A stretch of 32,000 nucleotides of DNA from Pseudoalteromonas translucida KMM 520 (GCF_001465295.1 NZ_CP011034.1:450001-482000), one strand, 5' to 3'. Positions 1 to 29,773 are shown, counted from the first letter of the stretch. Made by a program: numbers and translations. Notes: generated by a model not told the origin, from the sequence alone.

Positions 1-901
1 TAAACAACGTCGTATCCTGATTATTCTTGTAAATATCAGCTAATTTTTGTTTGCAGACATCATCGTCAGTTATTAGCCCCACATGACGTTCAGGTTGAGC
101 TAAATCTTTAATAAAAACAGGATTTATTTCATACTGGTTATACCAATGAATTTGAAATAGTCTCGACCATTGTGTTTTTGCTATGTGTTGAATGCCATTT
201 GTATCCAGCCAGTCCTTAAGCTCTTTTACTAAAGACGCTGTTGTGGTTAACTTAGCGCGTTGTGCATAGTAATCACGCAGTAAGTTTTGATTTAAGAGTG
301 ATAAAGAGTAATGAGTAGGAAAATGGGGGATATCTGTATTTTTATACTGGTGTTTAACGCGCAGTCTAGGATAAGGGCATTCATTAGTTATCGATTGGGA
401 GTCATTTAAAATAGTTGATATATCGCCAAGCGATAAAGGCGCTATCTCAAAGCCAATCATAATCACCATAAAAGCAGTGCCGAGCTCACGCTGCTCATAA
501 AAATTTTCGAGGTCTATTTGGTAGCATGAGAACACACGATGTGATAGCCCAGCTTCGTTTGCTATACTTTCAAACCACTCATGATCTGCGTCAGTAAGTA
601 AGGATTTAACAAGTTCAGAGCCATCCTGAGACTCAGGCAACTGCCACTGGCATGCATAACGTAAATAATAAAGAATGTTTTGCAAAGCTTTAGTGTAGTG
701 TACTCGCTTACCTGTTGGCACAGTTGCTATTATTCTTTGTGCTTTCTTTATTTCTTTTTCTTTTAATGAACGTGTTTGCTGCTGCATTACCGGCCATTTA
801 GTTAAAAGTTCAGCAATAACTTGTGTATCAGCACACGGCTGTGCCGTTTTACTTAGGTAGTCTTGAATATCTGTTGCATGTATCAATGCGGGGTTAGACA
901 T
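1..901 (-). CDS. hypothetical protein, third gene of the recombinase-like operon (N-terminal ~300 aa only; continues past the left window edge)
   Basis: Not in the supplied ORF track because it is truncated. My own minus-strand translation from ATG 901..899 gives MSNPALIHATDIQDYLSKTAQPCADTQVIAELLTKWPVMQQQTRSLKEKE..., with no stop down to position 1. Its ATG overlaps the TAA (896..894) of the upstream 521-aa ORF (ATGTCTAA), which implies translational coupling. I recognise no motif. Confidence 0.6.
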   Translation of the reverse strand, partial: MSNPALIHATDIQDYLSKTAQPCADTQVIAELLTKWPVMQQQTRSLKEKEIKKAQRIIATVPTGKRVHYTKALQNILYYLRYACQWQLPESQDGSELVKSLLTDADHEWFESIANEAGLSHRVFSCYQIDLENFYEQRELGTAFMVIMIGFEIAPLSLGDISTILNDSQSITNECPYPRLRVKHQYKNTDIPHFPTHYSLSLLNQNLLRDYYAQRAKLTTTASLVKELKDWLDTNGIQHIAKTQWSRLFQIHWYNQYEINPVFIKDLAQPERHVGLITDDDVCKQKLADIYKNNQDTTLF

Positions 902-2459
902 AATGTAACTCCTTAACGCCGATATGTTGGTCTAGCCCGTTTAAGTAAGCTTTTAGAACGCCAATATTTTTTGGGAACATAATGTCGCTACCTAAATGTT
1001 CTCCTGTATTTTCATGGCCCATTAGGCGATCAATATCTTGAGCCGTAAGTGGGGTAAGACTAATAATTGTATGAGCACATTGAGCAAAATAGTGCCTGAG
1101 CTGATAAGGAACAACACCAGCCCAGTGTTTGTTCATAAATACACGTAATGCACGAGCACTTAATGGTGTTGGAGTTTCTGACTTATCATAAATGTACCAA
1201 AGCTCAGGTAAATCATCATGTAAGCTTAGTTGGGAATGAAGTGATGCTTTTAGCTCAGTGTAATGCGTAATTTCTCTAAGCAGGTAATCACTTAAAATAA
1301 CTTGCCTTAAGTGGCCTTTATCTTTGACAAACGTAACGTGAGTGAATGAAAAATAATGAGAGAGCAAACTAATACTGTGAGTTGGCCTTACTCCTGTTAA
1401 TACAATAAACAGCAATGCTATGCGAAAGCTGACAGCATTAAAGTAGGCTAACCACTGCGCACGTGAAGCTCTACTGGTTGGTTTTAGTTGTTTAACATAA
1501 CTATCAATACGATTAAAAAAGTCAGTGACGTCTTTATCTTTAGGAACACGGCGACTACCGAGCATAATTGCAGGCGCTGCAACATGATCACTCTTTCCTT
1601 TTGTTTTAATGATTTTATATTGACCCATACTCCCTTTATGTTTCAGATCTGGATCAATATTTTCGTAAGGCGTATCTCTTAGGCGCTCAGTAATAAGGTT
1701 AACCGTTTTACTTTCGAGATGAACTTTGAAATACGAATGCAAATTCTCTTTTCGTATGAATTCAAATAAAAAGCCGATATATCTGTGATGGGCATCAAAA
1801 ATTTTAAATCTCAGACGGTCGCTGCTGAGCCGTTGATAGCATATAGCGCTAGTATGGTGTGCTTTAACTGATTTTACTAAATGCTTTCTTGGGATAGGGG
1901 TCAAGGTTTCGTCTGCGCGAGCACATAACGATATATAACGATAAAAGGTATTTTTTCTCGCCGGTTTAAAAGTTTTGAGTACTAGTGGCCTCGTCCAGTG
2001 GCTACTTATTAATTTAAAAAGTCGCTGTTTAACGCGATCAGTTAAAAGGGGAGTATTATATCTTAGATCACCGAAATAAGGTTGGAAAATACAATTCAAA
2101 TAGCGCGGGATCGGTTGCCATACGTAATAAGTGTGTTGATTATCTTTTATTTCATGAGCGTACTCGACCCAACTATTATTACCTCGTGTAAAGGTACGAA
2201 AAGTGAATGGCTGACAATCAAACGCTCCTGATATACGAGTAAAATTTGGAATATCTTTGTAAGATTTAATACTAGACCATTGCTGAGTGAGCCAAAGGAA
2301 AAGAGTAATAATAGTCATTACAAGACGATCTTTTTTGTTTTCTTTATTTAGCTTTATCATCAAGATAGTAAATGTTGTAGCATGCTCCATTGCATCTGGA
2401 TAGCAGCCCCCCGCATTGTTTAAACGATTACTTCTCGCTATGTGTGTATACTTACTCAT
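894..2459 (-). CDS. tyrosine-recombinase-like protein with a ~340-aa unrecognised N-terminal region
   Basis: The C-terminal ~180 aa carries integrase-like blocks: LLFIVLTGVRPTHSISL (box I Arg), VTFVKDKGHLRQVIL (Lys hairpin), PYQLRHYFAQ (box II Arg) and LMGHENTGE (GH). The only candidate Tyr downstream is in VLKAYL, ~24 residues after the GH His, which is non-canonical spacing. A GGAGAGG SD lies ~5 nt upstream of ATG 2459. Confidence 0.6.
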   Translation of the reverse strand: MSKYTHIARSNRLNNAGGCYPDAMEHATTFTILMIKLNKENKKDRLVMTIITLFLWLTQQWSSIKSYKDIPNFTRISGAFDCQPFTFRTFTRGNNSWVEYAHEIKDNQHTYYVWQPIPRYLNCIFQPYFGDLRYNTPLLTDRVKQRLFKLISSHWTRPLVLKTFKPARKNTFYRYISLCARADETLTPIPRKHLVKSVKAHHTSAICYQRLSSDRLRFKIFDAHHRYIGFLFEFIRKENLHSYFKVHLESKTVNLITERLRDTPYENIDPDLKHKGSMGQYKIIKTKGKSDHVAAPAIMLGSRRVPKDKDVTDFFNRIDSYVKQLKPTSRASRAQWLAYFNAVSFRIALLFIVLTGVRPTHSISLLSHYFSFTHVTFVKDKGHLRQVILSDYLLREITHYTELKASLHSQLSLHDDLPELWYIYDKSETPTPLSARALRVFMNKHWAGVVPYQLRHYFAQCAHTIISLTPLTAQDIDRLMGHENTGEHLGSDIMFPKNIGVLKAYLNGLDQHIGVKELHYV

Positions 2460-2472
2460 ATTGACCTCTCCA

Positions 2473-2955
2473 TTATCGAAAAGCAGACGGTGAGGTATTA
2501 GCTAAGTTTGCCAATATCGTTTTTTTAGGGGCGTGTATACCGTGCGCTTTAAAGCAAGCATGTCGCTGTTGAATATTAGCGCCCAAGCAATTTTTTAAAT
2601 AAAGTGTTACCGCACAGTTATATAGCAAGGTAACACTTAGCATATGCTCAACAGCATCTGCTGGATAAATAAGTACCTTTAAGGTAAGCTTTTTACTTAA
2701 AGGATGGGCTTTAAAGCGCTCTAGTATTCCACTCGACGCAAGTGTCAGGTAGCAATCACCATCAGTACTAAGTGTCACCGGTAGCGGGTGTAAATCTAAT
2801 ATTGTTTGTATAACCTCAATGGATAACTCACCAATGCAGTGGTTTACTTTTAAATTTACGAGATCATTTTTAATCAGCTCCCCTAATAGTGGATGAGCTT
2901 GTAATTTTGCTTTATCAAGCTGAATAGCTTTTTGCTTATGTTTCATATGACTCAT
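2473..2955 (-). CDS. hypothetical 160-aa protein, first gene of the recombinase-like operon
   Basis: The ORF ends 13 nt before the 521-aa ORF start, on the same strand. I recognise no motif. The C-terminal KKTILANLANTSPSAFR could be part of a DNA-binding helix, but that is speculative. The start could be ATG 2955 or ATG 2946. Confidence 0.5.
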   Translation of the reverse strand: MSHMKHKQKAIQLDKAKLQAHPLLGELIKNDLVNLKVNHCIGELSIEVIQTILDLHPLPVTLSTDGDCYLTLASSGILERFKAHPLSKKLTLKVLIYPADAVEHMLSVTLLYNCAVTLYLKNCLGANIQQRHACFKAHGIHAPKKTILANLANTSPSAFR

Positions 2956-3818
2956 TCTTTTTAATTAACGTATTCATGTCTAATTTATGGTAACCCTTTA
3001 CCATTGTTGCTTTGACGATTATGTCCGGCTATGTAGGCCTACTTATTTAGTGCGAATACAACACTCGCGTTTTGTAAAAAAATTCTTAATCGGTAAGCGC
3101 CAAAAATATTTATCTTGTCTATGTTAAATGATAAAAAATTTTTTTTGTGTGACAGAGGTACCTATTTTCGACGCTCTACCATTTTCCTAAGAACAAAAGT
3201 GAAAAACTTTTTGTTCTTGAAAAAACTTTTTAGACGAATATTTTTTAAATTTTTTATATTTAATAAATTTAACGCGCTTTTTTCGTCACAGCTTCGATTA
3301 ACCCCTACTTTGTTGGCACACTTATTTGTCGTGCTAAACATGAATATTCATAAACATTAAAATGACCAACTAGTTAAAATGTGAATAATTTAAATCGTAA
3401 AGGATTTTTTAAACGAGTTTCAGATTAGAGACCCCTTTTTTGGCACCTGAAAAAGAACACGTGATAAAAATATTTTTTTATAAAAAACATTATTTGTTCG
3501 ATAGTGGTTAATATCATTTATTTTCAATTGCCTAGAGTTTTTTCATTTTTTATTTTATTTAAAAAAATGTCTCTTTGAGTTTTTTAAATTTTTGTGGTTT
3601 TTTCTATTGTTTTAAGTTGACGGTGGGTTTTTAAGGGTAAATCAGGTTTTTGTATGCTTTTCTGTACGAATTTCATGGGGAGGGTTAGAGTATATGTGTT
3701 TTCAGCTCGCTGCTTTATTTGAAATTTGTTGTGTTTTTTTACTTTAACGCTGCTATTGAACTATGCATTTTTTCCAACAATGCCAGTGAAAAAACATCCA
3801 GTTATTTAATCACTGCAT

Positions 3819-4100
3819 TTAAGAAACAGTTCTGGTCATTACTTTTAATGTTAAAACAAACCCACATGGTTTTAGTACTTTTTTTAAAACCGATAAGCGA
3901 GGATCTGTGTTGTTTTTCTCAATATCACGCAATGTTCTATCTGATACTTTTACATAATTAGCAAAGCGTGTTTGCGACATTTTATAAAGCTTAGTGCGAA
4001 CTAATCGTACTGCATCACCTATTTCTATCTCATTATTTAAAATATCGTTCTCTATTTGTGCTAAAAAGGCTAACCTTTCTAATCCATCATATTTACTCAT
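3819..4100 (-). CDS. XRE-family helix-turn-helix protein (putative antitoxin/regulator partner of the HipA-like kinase)
   Basis: Classic XRE HTH: LYKMSQTRFANYVKVSDRTLRDIEKNNTDPRLSVLKKVL. The preferred start is ATG 4100 (MSKYDG...), with a GGGAG SD 6 nt upstream. It overlaps the kinase stop (4095..4093) as ATGAGTAA. The track's longer start at 4121 lies inside the kinase gene. Confidence 0.8.
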   Translation of the reverse strand: MSKYDGLERLAFLAQIENDILNNEIEIGDAVRLVRTKLYKMSQTRFANYVKVSDRTLRDIEKNNTDPRLSVLKKVLKPCGFVLTLKVMTRTVS

Positions 4101-5424
4101 CCATAACTCCCATTTGTACAAATTTACTCTCTAGAAACTCAAGCCCTATAGACGGAAAATAAACAATACGCTCAGGGCAACCAGCGGCTAAAAGTTTCAT
4201 GGGTAAATTTTTGAGCCTTTTGGCTATTTCTTGAAGATATGCAATCAATTCATCTGGATCACACATAGGTGAAAGTTGCTCAGCTATATGTAAAAAGTTT
4301 ACCTTGCCAGCACGTTCAAAACCCTCATCCCACTTAAATAGTCGCGTTACCATTTTAGGATCTGCTTTCATTGGCGCAAAGTCATAGATAGGGGCAAACG
4401 AAATCTTATTCTCTTTTTTGATAAATGAAATATTACGTCCATGATTGTCTGAATTTCCAAAGATTAAGTTCAAAAAGTCGCGTGCAATATATTGTTTTAC
4501 AAACTCTTCAGATGACATATCAGTCGTGTTACTAATTTTTGCCCAAAGGCAATTAATCACATCAAAATGATTCTGCGCACTTCCTGGCTCTGCATTAATA
4601 ATTGAATAGATACTTTCCATGCCTAACCTATGAGCAATTCCATCAACAATTTCAATATCAAAGCGAGGTAACCATAAGCTTACTTGGCCATTATGTTCGA
4701 GCATTTTTATTAAAGAGGGATCCATAGTCTCTACTGACAAACCATCGAGCACTTGGTTTAGCACTTGGTAATAAACGCCTTCAGCCTTCAAAATATCGTT
4801 ATCAATCTCTTGCCGGTTGTTTCTAGCAAATTTAGTTAAGTAAGCAGTGCCGGTTAAAGGTTTTCCTGCAAAGTCGCCATCTATATATACTTTATCTTCG
4901 ACAAGCATTAACAGTAGTTTAGGAGCAACACCGCCTGCACCAGTTGCCCCTCCAACCGTGGCACCTTGCTCATTGGCATATTCTAAAAAATCATACTGCA
5001 AAGACACAACGTCATTTATTTCAAAGTAAAGTACATGATTCTTGGTTAATACTTTGTTTGTTGATTCTTTGACTCGAAGATTGCCTACAGGAGAATTACA
5101 TGCGTTTTCTAACAAAGCGATATTTTTCTTAAAGGGTGTTTCATGCGCTACATTTAAGCGCCGTAACCACCAGGAGCGAGATTTTCCTACAGGCATTAAA
5201 TCATCCAAAAGAGCAGGCCATTTTAGATAGTCTGTCGGAATAATACTCAATGATGCATTAACAGAGCATGCTCTGTTATCAATACAGTCATTATCCGCTA
5301 AAGAAAACAGATATTCCGTAAAGTAAGTGAGCCTTACTTTAGAGCTCATTTCATCACCTGAAAACGTTAATTCAGCAGCATCATGCCACTGACCACCGTG
5401 AAACAATTGGAATATTACACTCAT
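4093..5424 (-). CDS. hipA: HipA-family serine/threonine kinase (type II toxin-like)
   Basis: HipA catalytic-loop motif GNSDNHGRNISF (D-x-H-x-x-N), Mg-binding APIYDFAP, and a Gly-rich ATP loop GGATGAGGVAPKLLL. Length 443 aa, similar to full-length HipA. A GAGG SD lies 5 nt upstream of ATG 5424. The symbol is a family-level assignment only. Confidence 0.8.
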   Translation of the reverse strand: MSVIFQLFHGGQWHDAAELTFSGDEMSSKVRLTYFTEYLFSLADNDCIDNRACSVNASLSIIPTDYLKWPALLDDLMPVGKSRSWWLRRLNVAHETPFKKNIALLENACNSPVGNLRVKESTNKVLTKNHVLYFEINDVVSLQYDFLEYANEQGATVGGATGAGGVAPKLLLMLVEDKVYIDGDFAGKPLTGTAYLTKFARNNRQEIDNDILKAEGVYYQVLNQVLDGLSVETMDPSLIKMLEHNGQVSLWLPRFDIEIVDGIAHRLGMESIYSIINAEPGSAQNHFDVINCLWAKISNTTDMSSEEFVKQYIARDFLNLIFGNSDNHGRNISFIKKENKISFAPIYDFAPMKADPKMVTRLFKWDEGFERAGKVNFLHIAEQLSPMCDPDELIAYLQEIAKRLKNLPMKLLAAGCPERIVYFPSIGLEFLESKFVQMGVMDE

Positions 5425-5833: not shown

Positions 5834-7156
5834 ATGTATCATTGGCAACAAAAAAATTGGCCTCTATTCGAATATGATGTGACACGCTTTGAGGTAAGTG
5901 TCAGCGAGTATTCGAAAAAGGCTTACAGTATTGAAGGGGCATTATCGCAAATACCGTTAAGTGACCATAATGATGCATTTGTCCACTTACTAGTGGAAGA
6001 AGCATTAAGCACCAGTGCCATTGAAGGTGAAAAACTTAACCGTGAAGAGGTGCGCTCATCGGTTGCTCGTTTTCTAGGGTTAAAAGAGCCAGAGCGTGGT
6101 GGTTACTTCCCTAAAGAAAAAGGCATTGCGGCGATGCTTGTTGATGTGCGCAAAAGCATTAAAAGTGCTATGTCTAAAACCTTACTTTGCCGTTGGCACA
6201 CGCTACTATTACACGGTAGTGAAGACTATTATGTAAACCCTATTACAAAAGGCGATTATCGAGACTCGTCCATTGATGTAATAAGAGAAGACTTATACGG
6301 CGACAGTGAAATCATCTACAAAGCACCCGGTAATAATCGCACTGAGGTTGAACATGAAATGGATGCTTTCATACAGTGGTATAATAGCGCCAATTGTTCA
6401 GGCCCTATAAAAGCAGCAGTTGCTCATTTATGGTTTGTCGCTATTCATCCGTTTCAAGATGGTAATGGCCGTGTTGGTAGAGCCATAGCCGAGCATGCGT
6501 TATTTCAAGACTTTTCGAGACCGCCGCTTTTTAGTATGTCGAGCATGATTAATACTAATCGAATGGAGTATTATCAACAGCTTAGAAATACTAATGCTAG
6601 CTTACAAATTAATGAGTGGATAGCGTGGTTTGTTGAGCTAGTTAGAACTTCGCAAGATAAGTCACTTGAGTCCGTTGAATTTGTATTGCAAAAATCAAAA
6701 TTTTGGGCTGAATATGCAGAGGTCAAACTCAACCAACGCCAAGAAAAAGTGATGAAAAAAATCTTCACTGTCGGCGCTGACGGCTTTGTGCGTGATGGTT
6801 TAACTAACGAAAAATACCGAGCTATTACTGGTGCGCCAACAGCAACCGCAACGAGGGATTTAAAATCATTGGTTGATAATGGCTTACTATATCCGTCAGG
6901 CGAAGGTAAGCGTGGATTACGCTACTTTGTGAACTTCCCGCAAGAGAAAAATCTATTTGCTGACAAAGGAGATGTTTCATTGGTTACAGATGTTAGCCTA
7001 ATTAAGATCTTGCAGAAAATAGAGCGTAATATTGAATATTTTCGTGGTGAAAAAAACTCAGGCTTAACAAAGCTTATTGATGAATATAAGGCTCTATCAT
7101 TAGATGAAAGAGTAGCGGATCGAAAGTTAGAAAAGCTTTTAGGACGAAACAGGTAA
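5834..7156 (+). CDS. Fic-domain protein (AMPylase-type) with an N-terminal intramolecular inhibitory motif and a C-terminal winged-helix-like region
   Basis: Canonical Fic motif HPFQDGNGRVGR (HxFx[D/E]GNGRxxR). The inhibitory (S/T)xxxE(G/N) motif is present as TSAIEG in LSTSAIEGEKL. The N-terminus MYHWQQKNWPLFEYD is typical of the Fic N-terminal domain family. Confidence 0.85.
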   Translation: MYHWQQKNWPLFEYDVTRFEVSVSEYSKKAYSIEGALSQIPLSDHNDAFVHLLVEEALSTSAIEGEKLNREEVRSSVARFLGLKEPERGGYFPKEKGIAAMLVDVRKSIKSAMSKTLLCRWHTLLLHGSEDYYVNPITKGDYRDSSIDVIREDLYGDSEIIYKAPGNNRTEVEHEMDAFIQWYNSANCSGPIKAAVAHLWFVAIHPFQDGNGRVGRAIAEHALFQDFSRPPLFSMSSMINTNRMEYYQQLRNTNASLQINEWIAWFVELVRTSQDKSLESVEFVLQKSKFWAEYAEVKLNQRQEKVMKKIFTVGADGFVRDGLTNEKYRAITGAPTATATRDLKSLVDNGLLYPSGEGKRGLRYFVNFPQEKNLFADKGDVSLVTDVSLIKILQKIERNIEYFRGEKNSGLTKLIDEYKALSLDERVADRKLEKLLGRNR

Positions 7157-7263: not shown

Positions 7264-8741
7264 TAAATACGTCCCCTTGGTCCTAAAGAAAGGCAGTTAG
7301 CGAGTTGTAATGGTCATATATGTAAAATCCTAGTATTTATCTTATCAACTTTTGCCGTAAAACACCGTTCCTTTAGGTCGGTGATATAAGGCAATAGTCG
7401 CGAAGCGACTAAGTGGGTTGTTCCTTTTTGATTGACTGTATATAATAACAGTATGATTATTCGCAAAGCTTATAAATTTCGTTTAAAAACAACACCCGAT
7501 ATTAACGCTAAAATGGCGCAATATGCGGGAAATTGTCGATTCTTGTGGAATAAAGCCCTAGCGATTAACTTATTTAAGTTACAGAATAAACAAAAAATTT
7601 GCTACTACCAAGAGTTGGATTTCTTTTCTAAACTTTGGAAAAAAAGCGAGGAGTATGGCTTTTTAACACTATCGCCCGCACAAACTATCCAACAAACATT
7701 GAAACAGCTTGAACGCGCCTTTAAAGACGCATTCGATAAAAACCAACCACTCAAACGGATGCCTACTTTTAAGAAAAAAGGAGAGGTGAATAGCTTTAGT
7801 TTTCCTCAAGGCTTTAAAATCGACAAGAATGGGAAACGTATTTTTTTACCTAAAATCGGTTGGGTTAATGTTAGAAAAAGCCAAGCTATTTTAGGAAAAG
7901 CTAAAAACGTCACTGTTTCACAAAAAGGAAAGCACTGGTTTGTTTCAATCCAAGTTGAACAAGAAGTAGCACCACCTAAGCACCCATCAAACGCCATGAT
8001 TGGGGGAGATTTAGGCGTGAAACGCCTAATTACCCTTTCTGATGGCAGTTTTGTGGAGCCGATAGATACCAGCAAACAGACAATCAGGATCAAACGATTA
8101 CAGAAGCAACTTGCTAGAAAAGTGAAATTTTCAAGTAACTGGAAAAAATTAAAAGCAAAGATCACAACATTTCATACGAAAGTTGCCAATATTCGTCATG
8201 ACAAATTACATAAGATCTCAACACAGTTGAGCAAAAGCCACGCAATCATCGTGCTAGAAGATCTTAAAATTAGAAATATGACGAAAAACAGCAAAGGCAA
8301 CAGTGAGCAGCATGGAAAAATGGTGAAACAAAAATCTGGCTTAAACCGCGTCATTCTCAATCAAGGATGGGGAATGTTTAAAGAGATGCTGAAATATAAG
8401 CAGGATTGGCTCGGCGGTCAGGTTATTTTTGTTGATCCGAAACATACCAGTCAAACGTGTCCGGCGTGTGGTCATCAATCAAAAGATAACCGATTAACGC
8501 AGTCTAAGTTTGAATGTGCGAAGTGCGGTTATCAAGATAATGCGGATCATGTTGGCGCATTAAATATTTTAGCGCGAGGTCATCGCGTTCTAGCCTGTGG
8601 AGAGATTGACATTAGTCAGCTTGTTGAAGCAGGAACTTGCCTTATGAGTGATCACAAGGCCCCGATGGTTTTAAACTAATCGGAATCCCCCTCCTTTCCT
8701 GAACTTGTTCAGGCGCTTGGCGAGGTGGTGGAGGATGTCAA
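7263..8741 (+). mobile_element. IS200/IS605-family (IS1341-like) tnpB-only element; right end well supported, left end uncertain
   Basis: The element holds a single tnpB ORF and no Y1 tnpA ORF nearby. The proposed right end ...GGAGGATGTCAA (ending 8741) is supported by a second, independent copy of the same end structure at 29709..29752. The proposed left end follows TTAC (7259..7262) where the flanking direct repeat stops, by analogy with IS608 (TTAC on the left, TCAA on the right). The left boundary could lie anywhere between 7263 and ~7430. Confidence 0.55.
7453..8679 (+). CDS. tnpB: TnpB (IS605 OrfB-family RNA-guided endonuclease)
   Basis: Typical N-terminus MIIRKAYKFRLKTTPD. RuvC triad candidates are IGGDLGVKRL, IIVLEDLKIRNM and NADHVGALNIL. 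Zinc ribbon CPACGH...CAKCG. The preferred start is ATG 7453; the track start at 7432 is a TTG extension. Confidence 0.9.
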   Translation: MIIRKAYKFRLKTTPDINAKMAQYAGNCRFLWNKALAINLFKLQNKQKICYYQELDFFSKLWKKSEEYGFLTLSPAQTIQQTLKQLERAFKDAFDKNQPLKRMPTFKKKGEVNSFSFPQGFKIDKNGKRIFLPKIGWVNVRKSQAILGKAKNVTVSQKGKHWFVSIQVEQEVAPPKHPSNAMIGGDLGVKRLITLSDGSFVEPIDTSKQTIRIKRLQKQLARKVKFSSNWKKLKAKITTFHTKVANIRHDKLHKISTQLSKSHAIIVLEDLKIRNMTKNSKGNSEQHGKMVKQKSGLNRVILNQGWGMFKEMLKYKQDWLGGQVIFVDPKHTSQTCPACGHQSKDNRLTQSKFECAKCGYQDNADHVGALNILARGHRVLACGEIDISQLVEAGTCLMSDHKAPMVLN

Positions 8742-9256: not shown

Positions 9257-10003
9257 TTAAGAGTTAATTACTTTAGCTATTTTCGCTTCTACGCTTTTGA
9301 TAATTGAAGCAACATCAATCACGTTATTGTTTGATTTTTGAGTTTGTACTACTGCATTTACCACTACTTTAGAGCCGTTTCTGTATGGGAATGACTCTAC
9401 TAGCATAACAACTTTAGCGCCTTCAACGTCAAGCATGTAATAATCATCTAAAGCAAGCTTAGAGTTACTACCGTAAATACGGAAATTTTTACGTACTTTG
9501 TTCATTAAACGGTCAAAGTTTGCTTTAACCGATTGAGAAGGGTATTCAGAGTCTATTTCAAACTTAGTTTTAAACTGAGTATTTGATAGGTAGTCAACAA
9601 TATCCATACTAGGAACTGGAAAAGGAAGTATTAAACCTTGTTGATAAGAGGACATCTTAGCAGGCTGGTATGTAACGATATTTGAATCTGAAGTGCGTTC
9701 AGTTGTCTCATTAATTGTGTATACAGCGCCTGATCCAATTGCTCCGTTATGAGTACGTTTTTCAACAATAACATTTCCAGCCTCATTGCCAAGCTTGATG
9801 CTGCCATACTTAGTACAACCTTTGTCACCATAGCTTTCACATTTATCATATGTGTTAAAGCTAATATCGATTGGTTGATTTAGTGGTAGCTTGTAGCTAA
9901 CAGCAGGCAAGTTTGTGAGTGGAACATCTGCTGGCGGTGGTGTTGATTTACACGCGGCTAATGCTGATGCGAATAATGCGACTGTAATTACTTTTTTAAA
10001 CAT
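9257..10003 (-). CDS. lipoprotein of unknown function
   Basis: Signal peptide with lipobox: MFKKVITVALFASALAAC|KS. An AGGA SD lies upstream. I see no recognisable catalytic motif. Confidence 0.75.
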   Translation of the reverse strand: MFKKVITVALFASALAACKSTPPPADVPLTNLPAVSYKLPLNQPIDISFNTYDKCESYGDKGCTKYGSIKLGNEAGNVIVEKRTHNGAIGSGAVYTINETTERTSDSNIVTYQPAKMSSYQQGLILPFPVPSMDIVDYLSNTQFKTKFEIDSEYPSQSVKANFDRLMNKVRKNFRIYGSNSKLALDDYYMLDVEGAKVVMLVESFPYRNGSKVVVNAVVQTQKSNNNVIDVASIIKSVEAKIAKVINS

Positions 10004-11297: not shown

Positions 11298-11776
11298 TGA
11301 ATATGCTTGCCTTAATATAAAATTGTGATGAATAAGCCCTAAACGAAGAATGTAATGAAACACATTTCTAGAATATATATTTTATCGAAAAAAACTTAAA
11401 AAACCCAGCGTTCAGAGCAAAGTGATGTTACAGGATCGTTCACATTCGCCTAATACTATTCAAAAGCCAGTCGTTCAGCTCTTTTCATTATTAGGTTTTA
11501 ATCATTTGCACGTATTTAATTTTGTAAACATTACTTATAAGCACTTTAAAGTTCACTTATGTATCTTGCTGGTGGTTTTTTTTGATACTTCATCGTTAAT
11601 GTGCTTTTTAACTGAATAATTTAAAGTTCTTTAAAATCAATTAATTGCAAGGTTTGTTGGTGATCGAGTTGCCTGGGGATGTATTAGTTGTTAATGGTTG
11701 TTAATTTATGTTGAATTTATGCATACATCTCTGTATCTTTATTTTGTTGAAAAATAAAAATGACAGAGGAAAAATA

Positions 11777-12805
11777 ATGAATATATTTAAAAAACTAATA
11801 CTAGGGGCTGCGCTTACTTTGGGTTCAGGGGCTTGTTTAGCTGCGGATGTAACCCTTAGGTACAATCAGTGGTTCCCATCTCAACATTGGTCACAAAAAG
11901 ATGGATTATATAAATACTTTGAAGAAATAGAAAAAGTAACAGAGGGGCGTGTGAAAGTTCGCCCATCTGCTAAGCCTCTTGCACCACCTACAAAAAACTA
12001 CCAAGCTGTATTAAGTGGAATTGCAGATATAGCATGGGGTCCACATGGCTATACACCTGGAGCTTTCTTATTAACTGAAATGGTGGAGTTTCCTTTTTTA
12101 ACTTACGATGCTGGGATCAGTTCAAAAGCATATTGGCGTACATATAAAAAGTTTTTTGAGCCTACTGGTATGCAGGATGGCGTTATCACTCTAGCAATGC
12201 ATGTTACTTCAGGCGGTAATATACATATGCGAACAGAGGACATCTCAACACCAGATGATTTTTATGGTAAAAAAATGCGTGTCCAAACAAGTGTGTTAGG
12301 TAATGCTTTGCAGTCGTTAGGGGCTGTTCCAATATCAGGCTCTCTGTCAGAACTTCGAGAGTTTTTATCTAGAGGGATTATCGACGGAACTATGCTGTCT
12401 GATGAATTACTCTACGGATTTAAAGTAAATAAATATGTAAACAAAGTCACTCAAATTCCAGGTGGCATTTATACAAACAGCGCTTTTATTATTATGAATA
12501 AGCAGAAATGGGAGAGAATTAGTTTAAAAGATCGTACTGCGATTATGGAAATATCGGGGGAAAAGTTATCAGTAAAAATGGGGCGTTTATGGCATGAAAA
12601 CGATATTGATGCACGTGCAAAGCTTATTGAATCATTAGGCGATGATTATCAAGTTGCCAGTGAAAGCTTAATTAAAGCGATTGATACTTCTTTTGAAGAA
12701 GGGCGTACAAGATGGTTTGAAAAAGCGAAAGAGCAAGGAATTAACGGTGAACAGGCTCTGGACTATTATAAAAAGTTAGTAATTAACTTAGATTCTAAAC
12801 TTTAA
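11777..12805 (+). CDS. TRAP transporter substrate-binding protein (DctP family)
   Basis: Signal peptide MNIFKKLILGAALTLGSGACLAADV. It is followed directly by DctQ- and DctM-type membrane genes. The preferred start is ATG 11777, after an AGAGGA SD; the track start at 11708 adds a non-signal extension. Confidence 0.8.
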   Translation: MNIFKKLILGAALTLGSGACLAADVTLRYNQWFPSQHWSQKDGLYKYFEEIEKVTEGRVKVRPSAKPLAPPTKNYQAVLSGIADIAWGPHGYTPGAFLLTEMVEFPFLTYDAGISSKAYWRTYKKFFEPTGMQDGVITLAMHVTSGGNIHMRTEDISTPDDFYGKKMRVQTSVLGNALQSLGAVPISGSLSELREFLSRGIIDGTMLSDELLYGFKVNKYVNKVTQIPGGIYTNSAFIIMNKQKWERISLKDRTAIMEISGEKLSVKMGRLWHENDIDARAKLIESLGDDYQVASESLIKAIDTSFEEGRTRWFEKAKEQGINGEQALDYYKKLVINLDSKL

Positions 12806-12835
12806 ATTTCACTTTATATAATTCTGGGGAAATTG

Positions 12836-13324
12836 ATGCACAAAAAGCTACTAAAAAGCATTGAATCTATTTGTAATAAGATTTGTATCTATTCGCTACT
12901 ATTGATGGCATTGGTTACATTCACAGACGTTTTTGGGCGACTATTTTTTAATGAGCCTTTAGGTTTTGCATATGAGTTAGTGGCTATATTATTAGCCATC
13001 TCTTTTTATGCAGGACTTTGCCAAGTCAATAGGAAGCGTCAGCATATTCAAATTGATTTACTAAATAAATATTTTAAAGGAACAATTGGAGTCATTCTAA
13101 ATTGGTTCTGCTACTTAGTTGAACTCACCTTCTTTACGGCACTAGTAGTAATGGTATATGAGCAAGTTGTAATGTCAGCTGATTTTGGTGAGGTATTCAT
13201 GTTTCTGAATGTAGAAAAATGGAAAGTGCTAGCGCTTATATTTGGGTTGGCATTTGTTTCTCTGATTAGTTTACTACAAGCGTTTCCGGCAGCTGGAAGA
13301 GTAAATATGGAAGGAAGTCGCTAA
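12836..13324 (+). CDS. TRAP transporter small permease (DctQ family)
   Basis: ~162 aa with four hydrophobic segments. It sits between the P and M components, and its stop overlaps the next start (TAATG at 13322..13326). Confidence 0.8.
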   Translation: MHKKLLKSIESICNKICIYSLLLMALVTFTDVFGRLFFNEPLGFAYELVAILLAISFYAGLCQVNRKRQHIQIDLLNKYFKGTIGVILNWFCYLVELTFFTALVVMVYEQVVMSADFGEVFMFLNVEKWKVLALIFGLAFVSLISLLQAFPAAGRVNMEGSR

Positions 13325-14610
13325 TGGTAATGTCAATAGTGTTTATAATACTACTCGTTATGCTATTTATTCGAGTACCAATTGCGATTGCAACAGGAGG
13401 ACTCGGAATTTTAGGTTTGGCCTACTATCAAGGATGGGCTATAGCTTTAAGTCAGCTAGGGATGATCGCTACAGAAACAGTACTTTCCTATGAGTTCGCG
13501 GTTATTCCATTATTTATTTTAATGGGTAATATTATCAGTCGCTCGGGGTTAGCTGAAGAGCTTTATAATGCAACGAATGCAATCGTGGGGCACTATCGAG
13601 GAGGTCTGGCTATTACAACTATTGGAGCTTCTGGCGGTTTTAGTACTTTTTGTGGTTCAAGCTTTGCTACGGCAGCAACGATGGCTAAAATCGCTTATCC
13701 ATCGATGAAAAAGTTTGGCTATAGTGATGAATTATCTACAGGTTCTATCGCTGCAGGAGGGACGCTTGGTATATTAATACCGCCTTCAATAGCCTTGGTT
13801 TTTTATGGGATTATAACTGAGACTGATATAGGTGAATTGTTCATTGCTGGGGCATTACCAGGTATTCTTGGAGTTATACTTTATGTTTGTGCTGTGCTGG
13901 TTGTTGTGCATTTCTCTGATAGTAAAGCGCAAGAATGTGAAGAAGTTAGCTTTCGAGAGAAGCTGCAAGCTTTAAGTCAACTATGGGCATTTAGTTTATT
14001 AGTAATATCAGTGTTAGGTGGGATTTACTTCGGTTTATTCTCACCTACTGAAGCCGCAGGAATAGGATCAGTGGGGGCAATATTTATCACAGTCTTACGA
14101 GGAAAGTTTTCATTTAAAAGTTTACTCGAAGCCCTTGATGATTCCGCATCTACAACCGTAACGCTTATAGCTATACTTATCGGCTCTTTAGTATTTGCTA
14201 ACTTAGTAAATGTATCTGATCTACCTTTTGATATTGTTGATTGGATTGAAGGTATGGAAATGGGGTTATTTGGTGTTTTATTCGTTATCTTATTAATCTA
14301 CTTTGTCTTAGGCGCAGTTTTAGAATCAATCTCAATGCTATTACTAACTGTTCCCGTTTTCTTTCCTATCGTATCAGGAATGGGAATGGACCCAATTTGG
14401 TTTGGTATCATAGTGGTGGTTGCAACGGAGATAAGTTTAATAACACCGCCTGTAGGGCTTAATGTATTTGTACTTAAATCAGTACTACCTAAAGTGGAGT
14501 TGAAAACTATTTTTAAAGGAGTATTTCCATTTGTTATAGCAGACCTTATTCGCTTGGCTATTTTATTAGCATTCCCAAGCATATCGCTATTTTTGGTACA
14601 GCAGATGTAG
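13324..14610 (+). CDS. TRAP transporter large permease (DctM family)
   Basis: A 428-aa polytopic membrane protein, translationally coupled to the DctQ-like gene. Confidence 0.85.
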   Translation: MVMSIVFIILLVMLFIRVPIAIATGGLGILGLAYYQGWAIALSQLGMIATETVLSYEFAVIPLFILMGNIISRSGLAEELYNATNAIVGHYRGGLAITTIGASGGFSTFCGSSFATAATMAKIAYPSMKKFGYSDELSTGSIAAGGTLGILIPPSIALVFYGIITETDIGELFIAGALPGILGVILYVCAVLVVVHFSDSKAQECEEVSFREKLQALSQLWAFSLLVISVLGGIYFGLFSPTEAAGIGSVGAIFITVLRGKFSFKSLLEALDDSASTTVTLIAILIGSLVFANLVNVSDLPFDIVDWIEGMEMGLFGVLFVILLIYFVLGAVLESISMLLLTVPVFFPIVSGMGMDPIWFGIIVVVATEISLITPPVGLNVFVLKSVLPKVELKTIFKGVFPFVIADLIRLAILLAFPSISLFLVQQM

Positions 14611-18006: not shown

Positions 18007-18063
18007 TACTTAAAAGTAAACAAGTTACGTAATTGTGATTATTTATGTTAGAGGTGAATGGGA

Positions 18064-18894
18064 ATGAGAATAATTGATTCAGGTAAAGGTAAAACAATTG
18101 AAGCTTTTGGGTTGCAGACAAATTATCTGGAGCTAGGTGAAGGCGAGCCATTAATTTTATTGCATGGCTCAGGTCCCGGTGTTTCTGCAAGTACAAATTG
18201 GCGCAAAGTAATGCCAGAGTTAGCAAAACATTTTCGAGTTATAGCGCCAGATTTAGCCGGTTTTGGACACACAGAAAGAGCTGAAGGTTTTTCTTATGAC
18301 ATAAAGCATTGGGGCAAACATTTATTAGGCTTTTTGGATGCATTAGGTATTGAAAAAGCTCACGTTATCGGAAATTCATTTGGTGGCTCTCTCGCACTAG
18401 CAACTGCAGCACGCTTTCCGGAGCGATTTTCAAAGCTTTGCTTAATGGGTACTCCTTGCGATAAATTTTTTATGACACCTGGGCTTCGCTCTGGTTGGGA
18501 TTACACACCATCTCTTGAAAATATGCGTAAAGCAATGTCACATTTTCCATTTTCAGAAAAAACGATAACGGATGAACTTGTTGAAGAGCGCTATCAAACT
18601 AGCCTTATTCCAGGTGCTCAAGAAGGCCTACGTAAGTTGTTAGTAAAACCAAGTGAAGACGGTGAGACAGCGCTTTCAGGTATGCCAGAGCATGTAGTGG
18701 CTAAAATAGCTCACCCTACACTTGTCTTACATGGTCGTGAAGATAAAGTTGTTCCGACTGAAATGGGGTTAAAACTCGGTCGCTCAATGCCTAACGCTGA
18801 TATGCACATTTTTGCTAACTGTGGACATTGGGTTATGGCTGAGAGACCAAAAGAGTTCTTGCGGCTTGTAATTAACCACTTTTTAGCAGAGTAG
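18064..18894 (+). CDS. meta-cleavage-product (2-hydroxy-6-oxo-dienoate) hydrolase, alpha/beta fold (BphD/TodF/XylF-like)
   Basis: LHGSGPGVSASTNWRKVMPELAKHFRVIAPDLAGFGHTE, the nucleophile elbow GNSFGG, and C-terminal CGHW. ATG 18064 has better SD spacing (GAGGTG 7 nt upstream) than ATG 18058. Confidence 0.85.
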   Translation: MRIIDSGKGKTIEAFGLQTNYLELGEGEPLILLHGSGPGVSASTNWRKVMPELAKHFRVIAPDLAGFGHTERAEGFSYDIKHWGKHLLGFLDALGIEKAHVIGNSFGGSLALATAARFPERFSKLCLMGTPCDKFFMTPGLRSGWDYTPSLENMRKAMSHFPFSEKTITDELVEERYQTSLIPGAQEGLRKLLVKPSEDGETALSGMPEHVVAKIAHPTLVLHGREDKVVPTEMGLKLGRSMPNADMHIFANCGHWVMAERPKEFLRLVINHFLAE

Positions 18895-18899
18895 GACGC

Positions 18900-19214
18900 A
18901 TGACCATGTTTTATGTTTGTAAATTAGACGACTTGGAAATTGGCGATTCAATTAAGCTTGAGCAGTATAAGCCACCTATTGCTGTAATACGTGGTGAAAG
19001 TGGTCAAGTATATGCAATTGATGACACTTGTACGCATGCTGAAGCATCTTTTTGTGATGGTTTTGTTGAAGGTGATACGGTTGAGTGTCCTCTTCATATG
19101 TCAGTATTTTGCCTCAAGACTGGTGCGCCAGATAATCCGCCTGCAATTAAAGCGGTTGCGACTCACATCGTGAACATAAAAGATGGGGATGTATTTATCG
19201 AGGTGCAAAGATGA
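18900..19214 (+). CDS. Rieske-type [2Fe-2S] ferredoxin component of the ring-hydroxylating dioxygenase
   Basis: CTH-x16-CPLH Rieske ligand motif in a ~104-aa protein. Confidence 0.85.
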   Translation: MTMFYVCKLDDLEIGDSIKLEQYKPPIAVIRGESGQVYAIDDTCTHAEASFCDGFVEGDTVECPLHMSVFCLKTGAPDNPPAIKAVATHIVNIKDGDVFIEVQR

Positions 19215-20461
19215 GTACTGTGAATGTGAACTCGGTAATTATCGTTGGCGCTAGCGCTGCAGGTGTGAGTTGCTTAAGAGGACTTCGTAATAACGGATTT
19301 ACTGGCAAAATTATACTTATCGACAAAGACACGTATGGTGCTTATGAACGGCCTCCATTGTCTAAGCAAATCCTTTTAGATCAAAAGCTAAAAAGTGAAG
19401 ACATATCTTTAATAACACCAACCGAATTATCTGATCTGAATATTGAAAGTTATTTTGGTGAGTCGGTAACCTATGTACTTCCAGATTTGCGTAAGGTTAC
19501 TCTTGAATCTGGAGTTGAGCTTGCTGCTGATGCGATTGTGCTAGCAACAGGTGGAGAGGCTCGACGATTACCTATAAAAGGTTCTGCATTAACTAATATA
19601 TTTGTTCTTCGTCACTTTCAAGACGCTGTAAAACTACGTGAGAAATTACTACCCAACTCACGAGTTGCAGTAATTGGTGGTGGGTTTATTGGTGCAGAAA
19701 CATCAGCCTCGCTTTGTAAGCTAGGTGTTTCAGTTCATTGGTTGGATGCAGCGGAGCTACCTCTGGCGCATATATTACCTTACGAGTTATGCGAAAAAAT
19801 AGTCAATAAACATTGTGATGATGGGTTAAACCTTATTACTAACTGCCGAATAAAAGAGTTTGTAGAGCAGGACGATGGCAGCCTATCTATTTTATTTAAT
19901 GATGACAGAGAATCGTTAAATGTTGATGCGATTGTTTTAGGCGTTGGCATGGCTCCTTATACACCTTACTTCTCTGAACAAGTTAACGCAAAGATCTTAA
20001 ATAAAGCCAAAGGCGGGATTGAGGTTAATGAAAGCCAAGAGTCTAAATACCCAGATATTTATGCTGCTGGAGATGTTGCAGCAATAATTCAAGGTAATGG
20101 CTCGGTAATTCGTCATGAGCACTGGCAATCTGCACAGTTTCAAGGAGAACGTACAGCAGCTTCAATTCTTAATATATCACTTCCTTCAGAGCCCGTTGAT
20201 TGGTTTTGGTCAGATCAGGGGGATTTACATATTGAAATGGCTGGTGTGTTTTTACCCAATGAGCAGCAGTTAGTTGTTAGAAATGAAGGGGATTGGCCGG
20301 TGTATTTTAGTGTGCTGAACAATCGTGTTGTTGGTGCTGTAAGTGTTAATAACCCCAATGCGGTGCGCGCAGCTATGCGAATGATTAAAAACGCAGTAAC
20401 AGTAGACGTAGCACAACTTGAGAACACAGACTTGCCGTTACGTAAATTAATGCGTGGCTAA
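19211..20461 (+). CDS. FAD-dependent ferredoxin-NAD(+) reductase
   Basis: Two dinucleotide folds (VIIVGASAAGVS and VAVIGGGFIGAE) plus YAAGDVA. The start overlaps the ferredoxin stop (ATGA). Confidence 0.85.
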   Translation: MSTVNVNSVIIVGASAAGVSCLRGLRNNGFTGKIILIDKDTYGAYERPPLSKQILLDQKLKSEDISLITPTELSDLNIESYFGESVTYVLPDLRKVTLESGVELAADAIVLATGGEARRLPIKGSALTNIFVLRHFQDAVKLREKLLPNSRVAVIGGGFIGAETSASLCKLGVSVHWLDAAELPLAHILPYELCEKIVNKHCDDGLNLITNCRIKEFVEQDDGSLSILFNDDRESLNVDAIVLGVGMAPYTPYFSEQVNAKILNKAKGGIEVNESQESKYPDIYAAGDVAAIIQGNGSVIRHEHWQSAQFQGERTAASILNISLPSEPVDWFWSDQGDLHIEMAGVFLPNEQQLVVRNEGDWPVYFSVLNNRVVGAVSVNNPNAVRAAMRMIKNAVTVDVAQLENTDLPLRKLMRG

Positions 20462-20488
20462 ACAAAAACTATAACGTTGGACAAATAT

Positions 20489-21376
20489 ATGTCAGAAATT
20501 AAGGCTTTAGGCTACCTCGGCTTTTCTATCTCCGATCCAGATGCATGGAAAAGATATGCAGAAAATATACTCGGAGTTAGTGTTACTGAAACTGATAATG
20601 GTGATATGTACCTCAGAATTGATTCTTATGCATGGCGAATCCATTTAAAAAAATCAGATCATGATCAACTGGATTACATAGGTTGGGAAGTGAGTGATAA
20701 ACAAAATCTGGAAAGTTTAAAAAGTCGTTTAACAGAACAAAAAATAGTATTTGAAGTTGGATCAGAGAAATTAATAAAAGATAGGAAAGTAAAAGATCTA
20801 ATAACTTTTCATGATCCAGATGGTACATGTTGCGAAGTGTTTTATGGCCCTTTACAAGTAACGAACAAACCATTTGTAAGTCCTAAAGGGTTTCGCTTTA
20901 TTACAGGAGAACAAGGACTTGGGCATATTGTCCTTATAACTAAAGATCATGATGCGCAAGAAGCATTTTATACTGATTTTTTAGGCTTTAAGTTATCAGA
21001 TTATATTAATACTGAGGTTGTGCCAGGCAAGCCCTTTAATATTTCATTTTTGCGTTGTAACGGACGTCATCACTCGTTGGCACTTGCTCCGGTTCCGATA
21101 CCTGCAAAAGTTGCACATATTATGTTTCAAGTAGACAGCATTGATGATGTTGGTCGTGCAATGGATGCGGCAGAGAAAGATGGAGTACATTTCTCATTCA
21201 CTCTAGGGCGCCATTCAAATGATGAAATGTTGTCATTTTATACAATGACTCCATCAGGTTTTGACGTTGAGTTTGGATGGGGAGCAATAGAGGTCGATGA
21301 CGATACTTGGCATGTAAAGGTGCACCATACTAATTCAGCCTGGGGCCATAAATTCCAGCGTCCTCCGCGTAAATAA
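20489..21376 (+). CDS. type I extradiol (catechol-type 2,3-) ring-cleavage dioxygenase, BphC-like two-domain enzyme
   Basis: Collinear with BphC as I remember it: MSEIKALGYLGFSISD, GLGHIVLIT, CNGRHHSLALA, HIMFQV, LGRHSNDEMLSFY, FGWG. The preferred start is ATG 20489. Confidence 0.85.
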   Translation: MSEIKALGYLGFSISDPDAWKRYAENILGVSVTETDNGDMYLRIDSYAWRIHLKKSDHDQLDYIGWEVSDKQNLESLKSRLTEQKIVFEVGSEKLIKDRKVKDLITFHDPDGTCCEVFYGPLQVTNKPFVSPKGFRFITGEQGLGHIVLITKDHDAQEAFYTDFLGFKLSDYINTEVVPGKPFNISFLRCNGRHHSLALAPVPIPAKVAHIMFQVDSIDDVGRAMDAAEKDGVHFSFTLGRHSNDEMLSFYTMTPSGFDVEFGWGAIEVDDDTWHVKVHHTNSAWGHKFQRPPRK

Positions 21377-21392
21377 TAATTATATAAGAGTC

Positions 21393-22181
21393 ATGATCAT
21401 GAGCAATAAAACCATTTTAAGTTTATCAAAGTTACTTTCTGATGCGTATGAAGGAGGTGTAGTTGCACCTTTAAGAGAGTTGGTCGAATCTGCAGATATT
21501 TCGCTGGCATATCAAATCCAGCAAGAAAACCATCTCCGTTGGAGTGAAGAAGGCCGTATAACAATAGGTCGAAAAATAGGACTGACATCGAAAGCTGTTC
21601 AGACTCAACTAGGTGTAGATCAGCCAGACTACGGCATGGTTTACGCTGACACTTGTTATGGCTCGGGCGCTCAATTATCAGTATCTAAATTTTTACAGCC
21701 TAAAATAGAAGCTGAAATAGCGTTTGTCCTAAAGTCTGATTTAGATTCAGAAAGTTTAACTATAGTAGACATCATTAATGCTATCGATTATGCAGTGCCA
21801 GCCTTAGAGATTGTTGATAGCCGTGTAGAAAATTGGGATATCACTCTGTTTGACACTATCGCAGATAATGCGTCGTATGGCGGGATTGTAATGGGTACAA
21901 CTCCTGTCCAATTAAGTCAATTAGACCTTGAAAACTGCACCATGAAACTGTTTCAAAATAGTGAGTTAGTATCTGAAGGTGAAGGACGTGCTTGCTTAGG
22001 AAACCCATTACTAGCGACTCTTTGGCTAGCTAATATCATGATTAAAAATGGCCTACCACTTCGAGCAGGTGATGTTGTGTTATCAGGTGCTTTAGGCCCA
22101 ATGGTGCCTGTTCAAGCTAAGAATACATTTACCGCTACCATTGATGGCTTAAACAGTGTCTCAGTCACTTTTACAGAATAG
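21393..22181 (+). CDS. 2-keto-4-pentenoate (2-hydroxypentadienoate) hydratase
   Basis: [23 protein letters not shown], typical of MhpD/XylJ/BphH, and its position before the dehydrogenase-aldolase pair. Confidence 0.85.
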
Positions 22182-22191
22182 GAGAAGAAAT

Positions 22192-23133: not shown

Positions 23134-23136
23134 CCC

Positions 23137-24159: not shown

Positions 24160-24161
24160 TT

Positions 24162-26994: not shown

Positions 26995-27024
26995 GAAACT
27001 AATAAAGAATACAGAGGATTAATT

Positions 27025-28329: not shown

Positions 28330-28342
28330 TAAGGGTATAAAA

Positions 28343-28891: not shown

Positions 28892-28912
28892 TTTAAAGGT
28901 GGTATTAGGCAT

Positions 28913-29686: not shown

Positions 29687-29708
29687 TTTTTCATTTATCT
29701 AATCAAAA

Positions 29709-29752: not shown

Positions 29753-29773
29753 TTATTCATAAAGGTTTCAATC

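Follow-up and report, generated by a model that had tools for sequence, protein, structure and literature searches.

The window analysed here, a stretch of 32,000 nucleotides from Pseudoalteromonas translucida KMM 520 (NZ_CP011034.1:450001-482000), begins with part of a gene module built on tyrosine recombinases. By comparison with related genomes, positions 1-3047 cover one end of a conserved operon, A-B-C-D, namely its upstream region, all of A and B and the first part of C; in relatives the operon is adjoined by a gene for an integrase, E (Table 1). A preliminary description, made from the window sequence alone, had recognised three minus-strand open reading frames (ORFs) of 160 aa, 521 aa and, for the one cut by the window edge, 300 codons, and had interpreted them as a translationally coupled module built around the atypical recombinase-like protein of 521 aa. 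All three ORFs are present, as are the 13-nt spacer between A and B with its GGAG ribosome-binding site and the 8-nt overlap between B and C, and a coupled multi-gene recombinase module that contains the 521-aa protein is borne out. The module itself is larger than described: leftward extension through relatives completes C at ~950 aa and then leads to D and E, giving a four-gene operon plus an adjoining integrase rather than three genes. The proteins of the three window ORFs have no matches in Pfam and NCBIfam at E<=1. They can nevertheless be taken as products of genuine genes and not of chance ORFs, since the full-length homologues of B form 108 clusters (in Pseudoalteromonas, Vibrio, Shewanella, Photobacterium, Psychromonas and Tolumonas), the gene order recurs in ~30 genomes, and the junctions, both the B/C overlap and a tight C/D junction, are kept in the loci of relatives. 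The nucleotide similarity found by blastn between the window and its 94%-identical relatives ends at position 3047, at a perfect palindrome, and the region between this boundary and gene A is a putative promoter/operator of the operon; promoter-like signals show no significant excess in it.

A scan of species-representative genomes gave 31 true loci. Wherever the contig is long enough, in ~30 species of Vibrionales and Alteromonadales, the genes follow the order A-B-C-D-E on one strand. The module is a chromosomal family of marine Gammaproteobacteria, found in Pseudoalteromonas, Vibrio, Shewanella, Photobacterium, Psychromonas, Enterovibrio and Tolumonas, with a patchy distribution across species. 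Three loci depart from the common layout: the order is E-A-B-C-D in Enterovibrio norvegicus, the full gene set of Shewanella baltica has D interrupted by an insertion sequence (IS), and Vibrio cyclitrophicus has E together with a further gene, F, with ABCD missing. ABCD never occurs without E where the contig reaches far enough, and E can stand alone; the adjacency of E to ABCD, kept in two arrangements, argues for functional coupling. Gene F is a sixth conserved gene of the Vibrio-type loci, which encodes ~170-205 aa and has a start that overlaps the stop codon of E; the four F proteins scanned have no Pfam matches. P. translucida TAC125 (NC_007481) carries a homologous ABCD locus near 0.44 Mb, where E is followed by a group II intron (RF00029, 41.9 bits) with a reverse transcriptase and then by an IS21 element. 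A 6.3-kb contig of a metagenome-assembled genome (MAG) of Cognaticolwellia sp. is 96% identical in nucleotide sequence to window positions 1-2600; as this MAG is assigned to the Colwelliaceae, the identity reflects either recent transfer between families or a short contig that was binned wrongly.

The recombinase fold of B emerges from both structure and profile comparisons. The best structural match of its AlphaFold2 (AF2) model (pLDDT 86.5, pTM 0.83) in Foldseek is XerA (4a8e, E=4e-4, probability 1.0), and further matches include the staphylococcal integrase 3nkh, the SSV1 integrase and type IB topoisomerases (TopIB) from bacteria and eukaryotes, among them 3m4a. With a profile built on 38 homologues, the same archaeal XerA structure is recovered from PDB (E=0.016), with PYQLRH aligned to PHQLRH and LMGH to LLGH, and weakly the protelomerase TelA (4f41, E=1.7); PF00589 is weakly matched by 8 of the 38 members. 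B gave no match in PHROGs or PADLOC. Model and profile together confirm a predicted tyrosine recombinase (YR)/TopIB fold for B, as had been proposed from the integrase-like blocks LTGVRPTH, VKDKGHLRQV, VVPYQLRHYFAQ, RLMGHEN and GVLKAYL, all of which occur in the 521-aa protein. The family appears real but rare: a B-family HMM search of 1.84 billion cluster representatives returned just 47 proteins at E<=1e-30.

Residues R358, K381, Y452, R455 and H482 of B are conserved in 100% of 105 homologues. The box-II His position is therefore held by an invariant Tyr (Y452-x-x-R455), and the replacement first noticed in PYQLRH of the single protein is a property of the family. The VLKAYL Tyr does lie far downstream of the GH His, as previously remarked, with 23 residues from H482 to Y505, but it is conserved in only 42 of the 105 homologues, the others having His (39), Phe (21) or another residue (3) at this position. 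No Tyr-conserved column follows H482 in the same alignment. Given the variable Y505 and no other conserved Tyr, B seems to retain the phosphate-binding pocket R-K-Y-R-H without a canonical nucleophile, and is probably not the enzyme of the module. Telomere resolvases of the ResT/TelK type also have a box-II Tyr (Y-x-x-R) within an R-K-Y-R-H pentad; each of them brings a nucleophile Tyr of its own and works on hairpin telomeres without a partner. B shares with them the Y-x-x-R of box II but has no conserved nucleophile, and no linear replicon is evident.

The likely catalyst is the product of gene C, which was visible in the window only as a truncated ORF and which displaces the atypical 521-aa protein from the centre of the module. 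The window DNA is 87-96% identical to that of five related loci, L001-L005, in which C has 949-950 aa (~930-1000 aa in relatives at large); the full-length C proteins of L001 and L003 are 85-88% identical to the window C. The catalytic domain spans approximately residues 470-680, past the window edge, and the window carries the non-catalytic N-terminal 300 residues. Across 22 homologues R488 (MLRRGE), K521, H590/H591-L-R593, H662, Y665 and Y672 (TTRWSYLH) are invariant, so C is predicted to be a complete recombinase with an R-K-H-R-H-Y site. C scores 24.6 bits against PF00589, under the cut-off of 27.1, and 2.2e-9 against the phrog_1 integrase; sequence and profile searches of PDB gave no matches. 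One weak match to C in an unannotated stretch of the plasmid pSA70-4 led nowhere.

The products of the two outer operon genes are recognisable only by a segment and by a fold, respectively. Homologues of A recur upstream of B in other loci, and an alignment of 14 of them displays an invariant, helix-turn-helix-like segment at the C-terminus, K..LA.LAN.SPSAIR; A looks like a small DNA-binding protein, with no matches in Pfam, NCBIfam, PHROGs, PADLOC or, by sequence and profile, PDB. For D, an AF2 model built from a six-sequence alignment (pLDDT 67, pTM 0.48) comprises six beta-alpha-beta-beta-beta units, and its top 50 Foldseek matches are all DnaN sliding clamps (E=2e-9 to 4e-8, ~410-440 aligned columns). 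By sequence, D has no matches in Pfam (DNA_pol3_beta included), NCBIfam, PHROGs, PADLOC or PDB, and one homologue carries the UniRef name 'DNA polymerase III subunit beta'. With moderate model confidence we thus assign D a beta-sliding-clamp (DnaN) fold, as a statement about fold and not about family membership. D is also the fastest-evolving gene of the module, with 16-28% identity between types.

Together with its control region, integrase E makes up a unit of its own; in L001-L005 a spacer of 230-500 bp separates its gene from D. The protein has 384-396 aa and carries a PF12167 (DUF3596) arm domain, Phage_int_M and Phage_integrase; the arm domain places it in the IntBPP-1 subgroup (PMC8138268). 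It differs from integrases of this subgroup and from integron integrases in being chromosomal and genus-tracking, in having a switchable leader without an Rfam family, and in being neither part of a prophage nor an IntI. Of 24 loci, 22 have a LexA-like box, CTGGACAAATAAACAG (consensus CTG-N10-CAG), in the D-E spacer, the background frequency being 0.15 matches per kb; E shares this feature with the SOS-controlled integron integrases. Three Shewanella loci (L016, L025, L047) have a near-identical box, CTGTACAAATAAACAG, upstream of A; the window has none there.

Directly before the E start codon lies a leader of ~140 nt, in which hairpin P1 has five compensatory pairs. Its CCAU[C/U]GG segment can pair with the invariant GCCGAUGG, G-U being tolerated, or alternatively with [G/A]AUGG of the E Shine-Dalgarno (SD) sequence. 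At the variable position of the latter, SD-sequestering helix there are 16 C:G pairs, 10 U:A pairs and 1 mismatch in 27 loci, so that a Watson-Crick pair is kept in 26 of the 27. Helices that exclude one another in this way typify a riboswitch or attenuator, and the E leader is well supported as a candidate new cis-regulatory RNA (riboswitch or translational attenuator); the D-E spacer matches no Rfam family. Both the box and the leader accompany E even where ABCD is absent or relocated, although the 3' half of the leader differs in Enterovibrio. From the motif and the covariation, E may be under SOS control and regulated through its leader. In metagenomes just 1 of 120 loci matched by the leader pattern was genuine, the pattern being too unspecific, and a CCAATAG...CTATTGG hairpin upstream of E occurs in only 8 of 32 loci.

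Comparison between loci reveals a mosaic. The identity of E is 67-77% between genera and 85-97% within a genus, whereas the identities of B, C and D drop to 33-48%, 29-49% and 16-28%. In one pair of Shewanella loci (L015 and L022) E is 97% and the DNA flanks are 88-89% identical, and B/C/D are only 44-48% identical; between L001 and TAC125 the values are 96% for E, 48% for B, 49% for C and 28% for D. The types switch within the D-E spacer and, on the other side, ~80 bp upstream of A, and judging from these identities the evolution of E is decoupled from that of B/C/D. The flanks differ on both sides even among close relatives, modules of 94-96% identity sit in different flanks, and the possibility that the three genes occupy the same locus with identical neighbours in all relatives is therefore not borne out; an exception is formed by several Shewanella species, in which the locus is syntenic and the B-C-D block alone is replaced.

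Polysaccharide-synthesis genes are frequent on either flank, as are toxin-antitoxin (TA), Abi and Fic genes. Next to the module, HipA and Fic genes are met again in five loci (L014, L017, L047, L170, L171), and one and the same hipBA cassette abuts A in S. subflava and lies inverted after E in S. holmiensis. L009 contains a tandem second copy of the module, and decayed integrase copies are present in L011, L017, L021, L027 and L035. A YafO-type TA cassette lying just upstream of the E leader of V. cyclitrophicus is enclosed by a 550-bp direct duplication (96-99% identical), which may be the footprint of a cassette insertion or of tandem recombination. An att site inside the E gene, as in SSV-type integration, was considered and rejected: the 3' integrase fragments begin at residues 222, 269, 294 and 340, and such varied starts make them look like decay products.

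Table 1. Features of the module and its surroundings, numbered within the window or, where a locus handle (L) is given, within loci of related genomes.
Feature	Coordinates	Strand	Remarks
Gene C, first 300 codons	1..901	minus	ATG at 901-899; runs off the left edge
B stop/C start overlap, ATGTCTAA	894..901	minus	translational coupling; read directly
Gene B	894..2459	minus	521 aa; ~340-aa family-specific N-terminal part, then predicted YR/TopIB-fold catalytic domain
A-B spacer, 13 nt, TGGAGAGGTCAAT	2460..2472	minus	GGAG ribosome-binding site of B; read directly
Gene A	2473..2955	minus	160 aa; first gene of operon; ORF call
Upstream region of operon, putative promoter/operator	2956..3047	minus	blastn boundary and alignment with relatives
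Perfect palindrome, GTAGGCCTAC	3033-3042		in upstream region of operon
Gene D	e.g. L001:6034-7335		fourth operon gene; 433-436 aa in relatives L001-L005
LexA-like box, CTGGACAAATAAACAG	L001:7373-7388; L043:15665-15680		D-E spacer
E leader RNA, ~140 nt	L043:15940-16085; L003:7360-7505; L015:16030-16178		directly before E start codon
Gene F	L006:17054-17635; L007:17063-17680; L019:18556-19143; L029:17344-17928; L171:11161-11760		sixth gene
Locus of E. norvegicus	L172:10001-17411		order E-A-B-C-D
Locus of S. baltica	L170:1916-11167		full gene set
Locus of V. cyclitrophicus	L171:10001-11760		E and gene F
Direct duplication, 550 bp	L171:6743-7289 and 9293-9842		V. cyclitrophicus
Group II intron	L043:17559-17633		TAC125, downstream of E
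Cognaticolwellia sp. contig	L005		6.3 kb
HipB-like/HipA toxin-antitoxin pair	3819-5424		adjoins gene A
DUF4172-Fic protein	5834-7156		near gene A
IS605-family OrfB/TnpB	7432-8679		415 aa; Cas12f-like TNB domain; no adjacent TnpA noted
TRAP transporter DctPQM	11708-14610
Aromatic meta-cleavage-type operon	18058-30187		12 genes

Taken together, the five-gene synteny in ~30 genomes, the active site of C, the fold of B without a nucleophile, the clamp fold of D and the features of E lead us to propose, with a confidence that stays somewhat short of even, that A-B-C-D and E constitute a previously undescribed heteromeric site-specific recombination module of the YR type, which probably moves or reshuffles neighbouring DNA. 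The patchy distribution, the tandem and decayed copies, the differing flanks, the hipBA cassette on either side and the TA-rich surroundings are signs of turnover or mobility. From the folds, motifs, synteny, mosaicism and control-element covariation set out above we infer this mobility and each of the mechanistic steps that follow. C, with its complete predicted site, would be the catalytic recombinase, and B a recombinase-fold partner that pairs with C and cannot cleave. [quoted passage not shown] XerC/XerD and the trans active sites of the Flp type are precedents for a silent subunit or for a Tyr given in trans; that the Tyr might be supplied in trans between B and C is pure speculation. 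A may confer sequence-specific DNA binding or directionality, and D may hold the complex on DNA or link it with the replisome. E would be an SOS-inducible integrase whose switchable leader can sequester its own Shine-Dalgarno sequence. The module would mark, and probably drive, gene turnover in flanks rich in TA, defence and polysaccharide genes. The more specific proposition, in which ABCD (C with its partner B, clamp D and A) is a replication-coupled one-strand recombination machine, tied to an SOS-controlled, riboregulated E and driving TA, defence and polysaccharide turnover at chromosomal hot spots, is doubtful at present.

Several observations speak against a mobile recombination module. 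Terminal or att repeats around the module gave chance-level matches only, and the ends of the element were not located; copies of the boundary sequence within the window likewise reach chance level only. There is no empty site among the loci compared, no tRNA or tmRNA target near the module, and no homologue of B among 72,556 plasmids, 50,697 phages and the IMG/VR contigs. E tracks the host genus (96-97% identity within a genus, 67-77% between genera), while at the syntenic Shewanella locus the B/C/D types swap between conserved flanks, a pattern that suits a resident locus under diversifying selection equally well. E without ABCD in V. cyclitrophicus means that ABCD may be cargo and not machinery. 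The inactivity of B is deduced from conservation, and the clamp fold of D from a model of moderate confidence.

The last of the genomic objections can be developed into an unlikely alternative, in which ABCD is the cargo of E-type islands, namely a conflict, defence or DNA-maintenance system with C as a nicking or trapping enzyme, B as its decoy or partner and D as a clamp-like sensor. Such a role would agree with the dependence of ABCD on E in all contigs of sufficient length while E occurs alone, with the deep allelic types of B/C/D that are exchanged between conserved flanks (D being the fastest), with a neighbourhood rich in TA, Abi, Fic and phage-receptor polysaccharide genes, and with the lack of copies on plasmids or phages in the collections searched. 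However, PADLOC gives no matches for A-D, which have no nuclease, ATPase or other usual effector domain, and we know of no described defence system built on a tyrosine recombinase. Moreover, C retains every residue needed for full strand exchange, and the operon architecture parallels that of known multi-gene recombinase elements.

We consider it rather improbable that the module is a resident, itself immobile chromosomal system that captures, inverts or exchanges cassettes beside A and E in the manner of an integron or shufflon. The geometry of the locus invites this thought: variable DNA begins immediately behind E and, upstream of A, within ~30-90 bp, the module stays put in several Shewanella species, a single hipBA cassette is found on either side in opposite orientation, the 550-bp duplication of V. 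cyclitrophicus flanks a TA cassette just upstream of the E leader, and polysaccharide clusters repeatedly have the module within them or at their end. Integrons have a LexA-like box upstream of their integrase, as E does. Yet repeated attC-like or cassette-boundary sequences were not found in the loci, the tandem and decayed copies and the patchy distribution indicate gain and loss of the module itself, and the arm-binding domain of E is typical of element integrases.

The preliminary description had offered several named element classes as possible homes for the module. Judged on proteins and architecture, it appears to fit no class among Gamma-Mobile-Trio (GMT) islands, SE, GInt, Tn554 and recombinase-in-trio (RIT) elements, the last-but-one and the last being compared by architecture alone, and we found no description of the five-gene module in the literature. 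GMT islands resemble it in combining a recombinase pair of ~500 aa and ~900 aa with a small DNA-binding protein at the border of islands with toxin or defence cargo in Vibrio-like bacteria: GmtY has 485 aa, GmtZ 866-879 aa with PF13009 (Phage_Integr_2), and GmtX 225 aa. Their mechanism was shown to be replicative, and they occur also on plasmids (bioRxiv 10.1101/2023.03.28.534373); a replicative mechanism is conceivable for ABCD as well. GMT islands are further characterised by a circular intermediate and by insertion into a naive site with an inverted repeat; for the module no circle or empty site was found. In contrast to the order Y-Z-X, the module reads A(small)-B-C-D, that is small-521-950-430; the N-terminal PF13009 of GmtZ is not found in its proteins, and GMT islands have neither a clamp-fold gene nor an adjoining PF12167 integrase. 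Models of PF13009, GmtY, GmtZ and GmtX gave no signal in Pfam or NCBIfam scans of the module proteins. Profiles of A, B, C and D aligned by hhalign to GmtY, GmtZ, GmtX and VPA1267 of NZ_CP036336.1 reached a probability of <=0.7%, a weak negative given that the templates were single sequences and that B against C, profile to profile, also scored nothing.

The nearest concept is that of SE (intA-tfp-intB-srap) and GInt (ginABCD), which combine two complete RHRY recombinases with Tfp/GinC and Srap/GinD (PMC10214605). Like them, the module is a translationally coupled multi-gene YR operon at the edge of variable DNA, with a large recombinase-fold protein devoid of the catalytic Tyr and an accessory protein of unknown fold, in gammaproteobacterial hosts that include Vibrio, Shewanella and Pseudoalteromonas, and one-strand or replicative recombination is plausible as a common logic. 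The differences lie in the parts. In SE and GInt two complete recombinases flank or precede the inactive one, GInt having three consecutive recombinase-family genes plus ginD, whereas the module has one (C) and a separate arm-domain integrase, E. Tfp has no RHRY motif while B retains R, K, R and H; the module begins with the small protein A, and its fourth gene has a clamp fold instead of the coiled-coil Srap/GinD type. SE are bounded by imperfect terminal inverted repeats of 13-19 bp with a 6-bp spacer (PMC10214605); no such repeats were found around the module, whose ends were not located, nor were plasmid copies. The published iterative PSI-BLAST screen for SE and GInt lists TAC125 only at 2,501,795-2,505,971 and not at the ABCD locus near 0.44 Mb, and of its two supplementary listings of presence or absence for NC_007481 one, presumably that of the GInt screen, is 0 (PMC10214605). 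SE are recognised there by a tfp-srap synteny block, and GInt by ginC-ginD synteny. From SE the module is set apart by architecture and by this screen. Tn554, with TnpA and TnpB both active YRs plus TnpC, and RIT elements, with three adjacent active YRs of 300-400 aa, do not fit its architecture. That the module is a divergent member of one of these classes is accordingly highly improbable: the sizes of GmtY and GmtZ loosely recall B and C (~950 aa), the hosts are similar and the recombinase-fold protein without catalytic Tyr is a common concept (PMC10214605), but the absent Gmt signal, the screen that lists TAC125 at 2.50 Mb only, the different gene number and order, the clamp-fold gene and the single complete recombinase of the operon all point away from it.

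The module had further been regarded as the mobility module of an island to its right in the window. The HipBA and Fic genes near gene A fit a role in gene turnover. However, past HipBA, Fic and the IS605 TnpB the window continues with transport and aromatic-catabolism genes and is not a defence island: the aromatic operon encodes a hydrolase, an extradiol dioxygenase, an aldolase/acetaldehyde dehydrogenase, Rieske oxygenase alpha and beta subunits, a CoA ligase and thioesterases, and TetR regulators and a porin are also present. No second island end was found in the window, and nothing that would bear out this assignment came to light, be it att repeats, an empty site, a circle or a copy of the module on a plasmid or phage; its mobility is suggested by the mosaic of flanks described above.

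It is only of late that SE, GInt and GMT elements have come to be seen as major carriers of genes for resistance, defence and toxins. As a new member among the multi-gene tyrosine-recombinase modules, the one described here adds a fourth architecture, in which a nucleophile-less protein with a whole predicted phosphate-binding pocket is combined with an element-encoded sliding-clamp homologue, and it should be of interest for the fields of mobile elements and recombination. With the clamp homologue D, the link proposed between one-strand recombination and replication becomes open to direct testing. Finally, the module adjoins or sits in loci for polysaccharides and arrays of toxin-antitoxin genes, on which the susceptibility of Vibrio, Shewanella and Pseudoalteromonas to phages depends, and it could explain the gene turnover at these hot spots.

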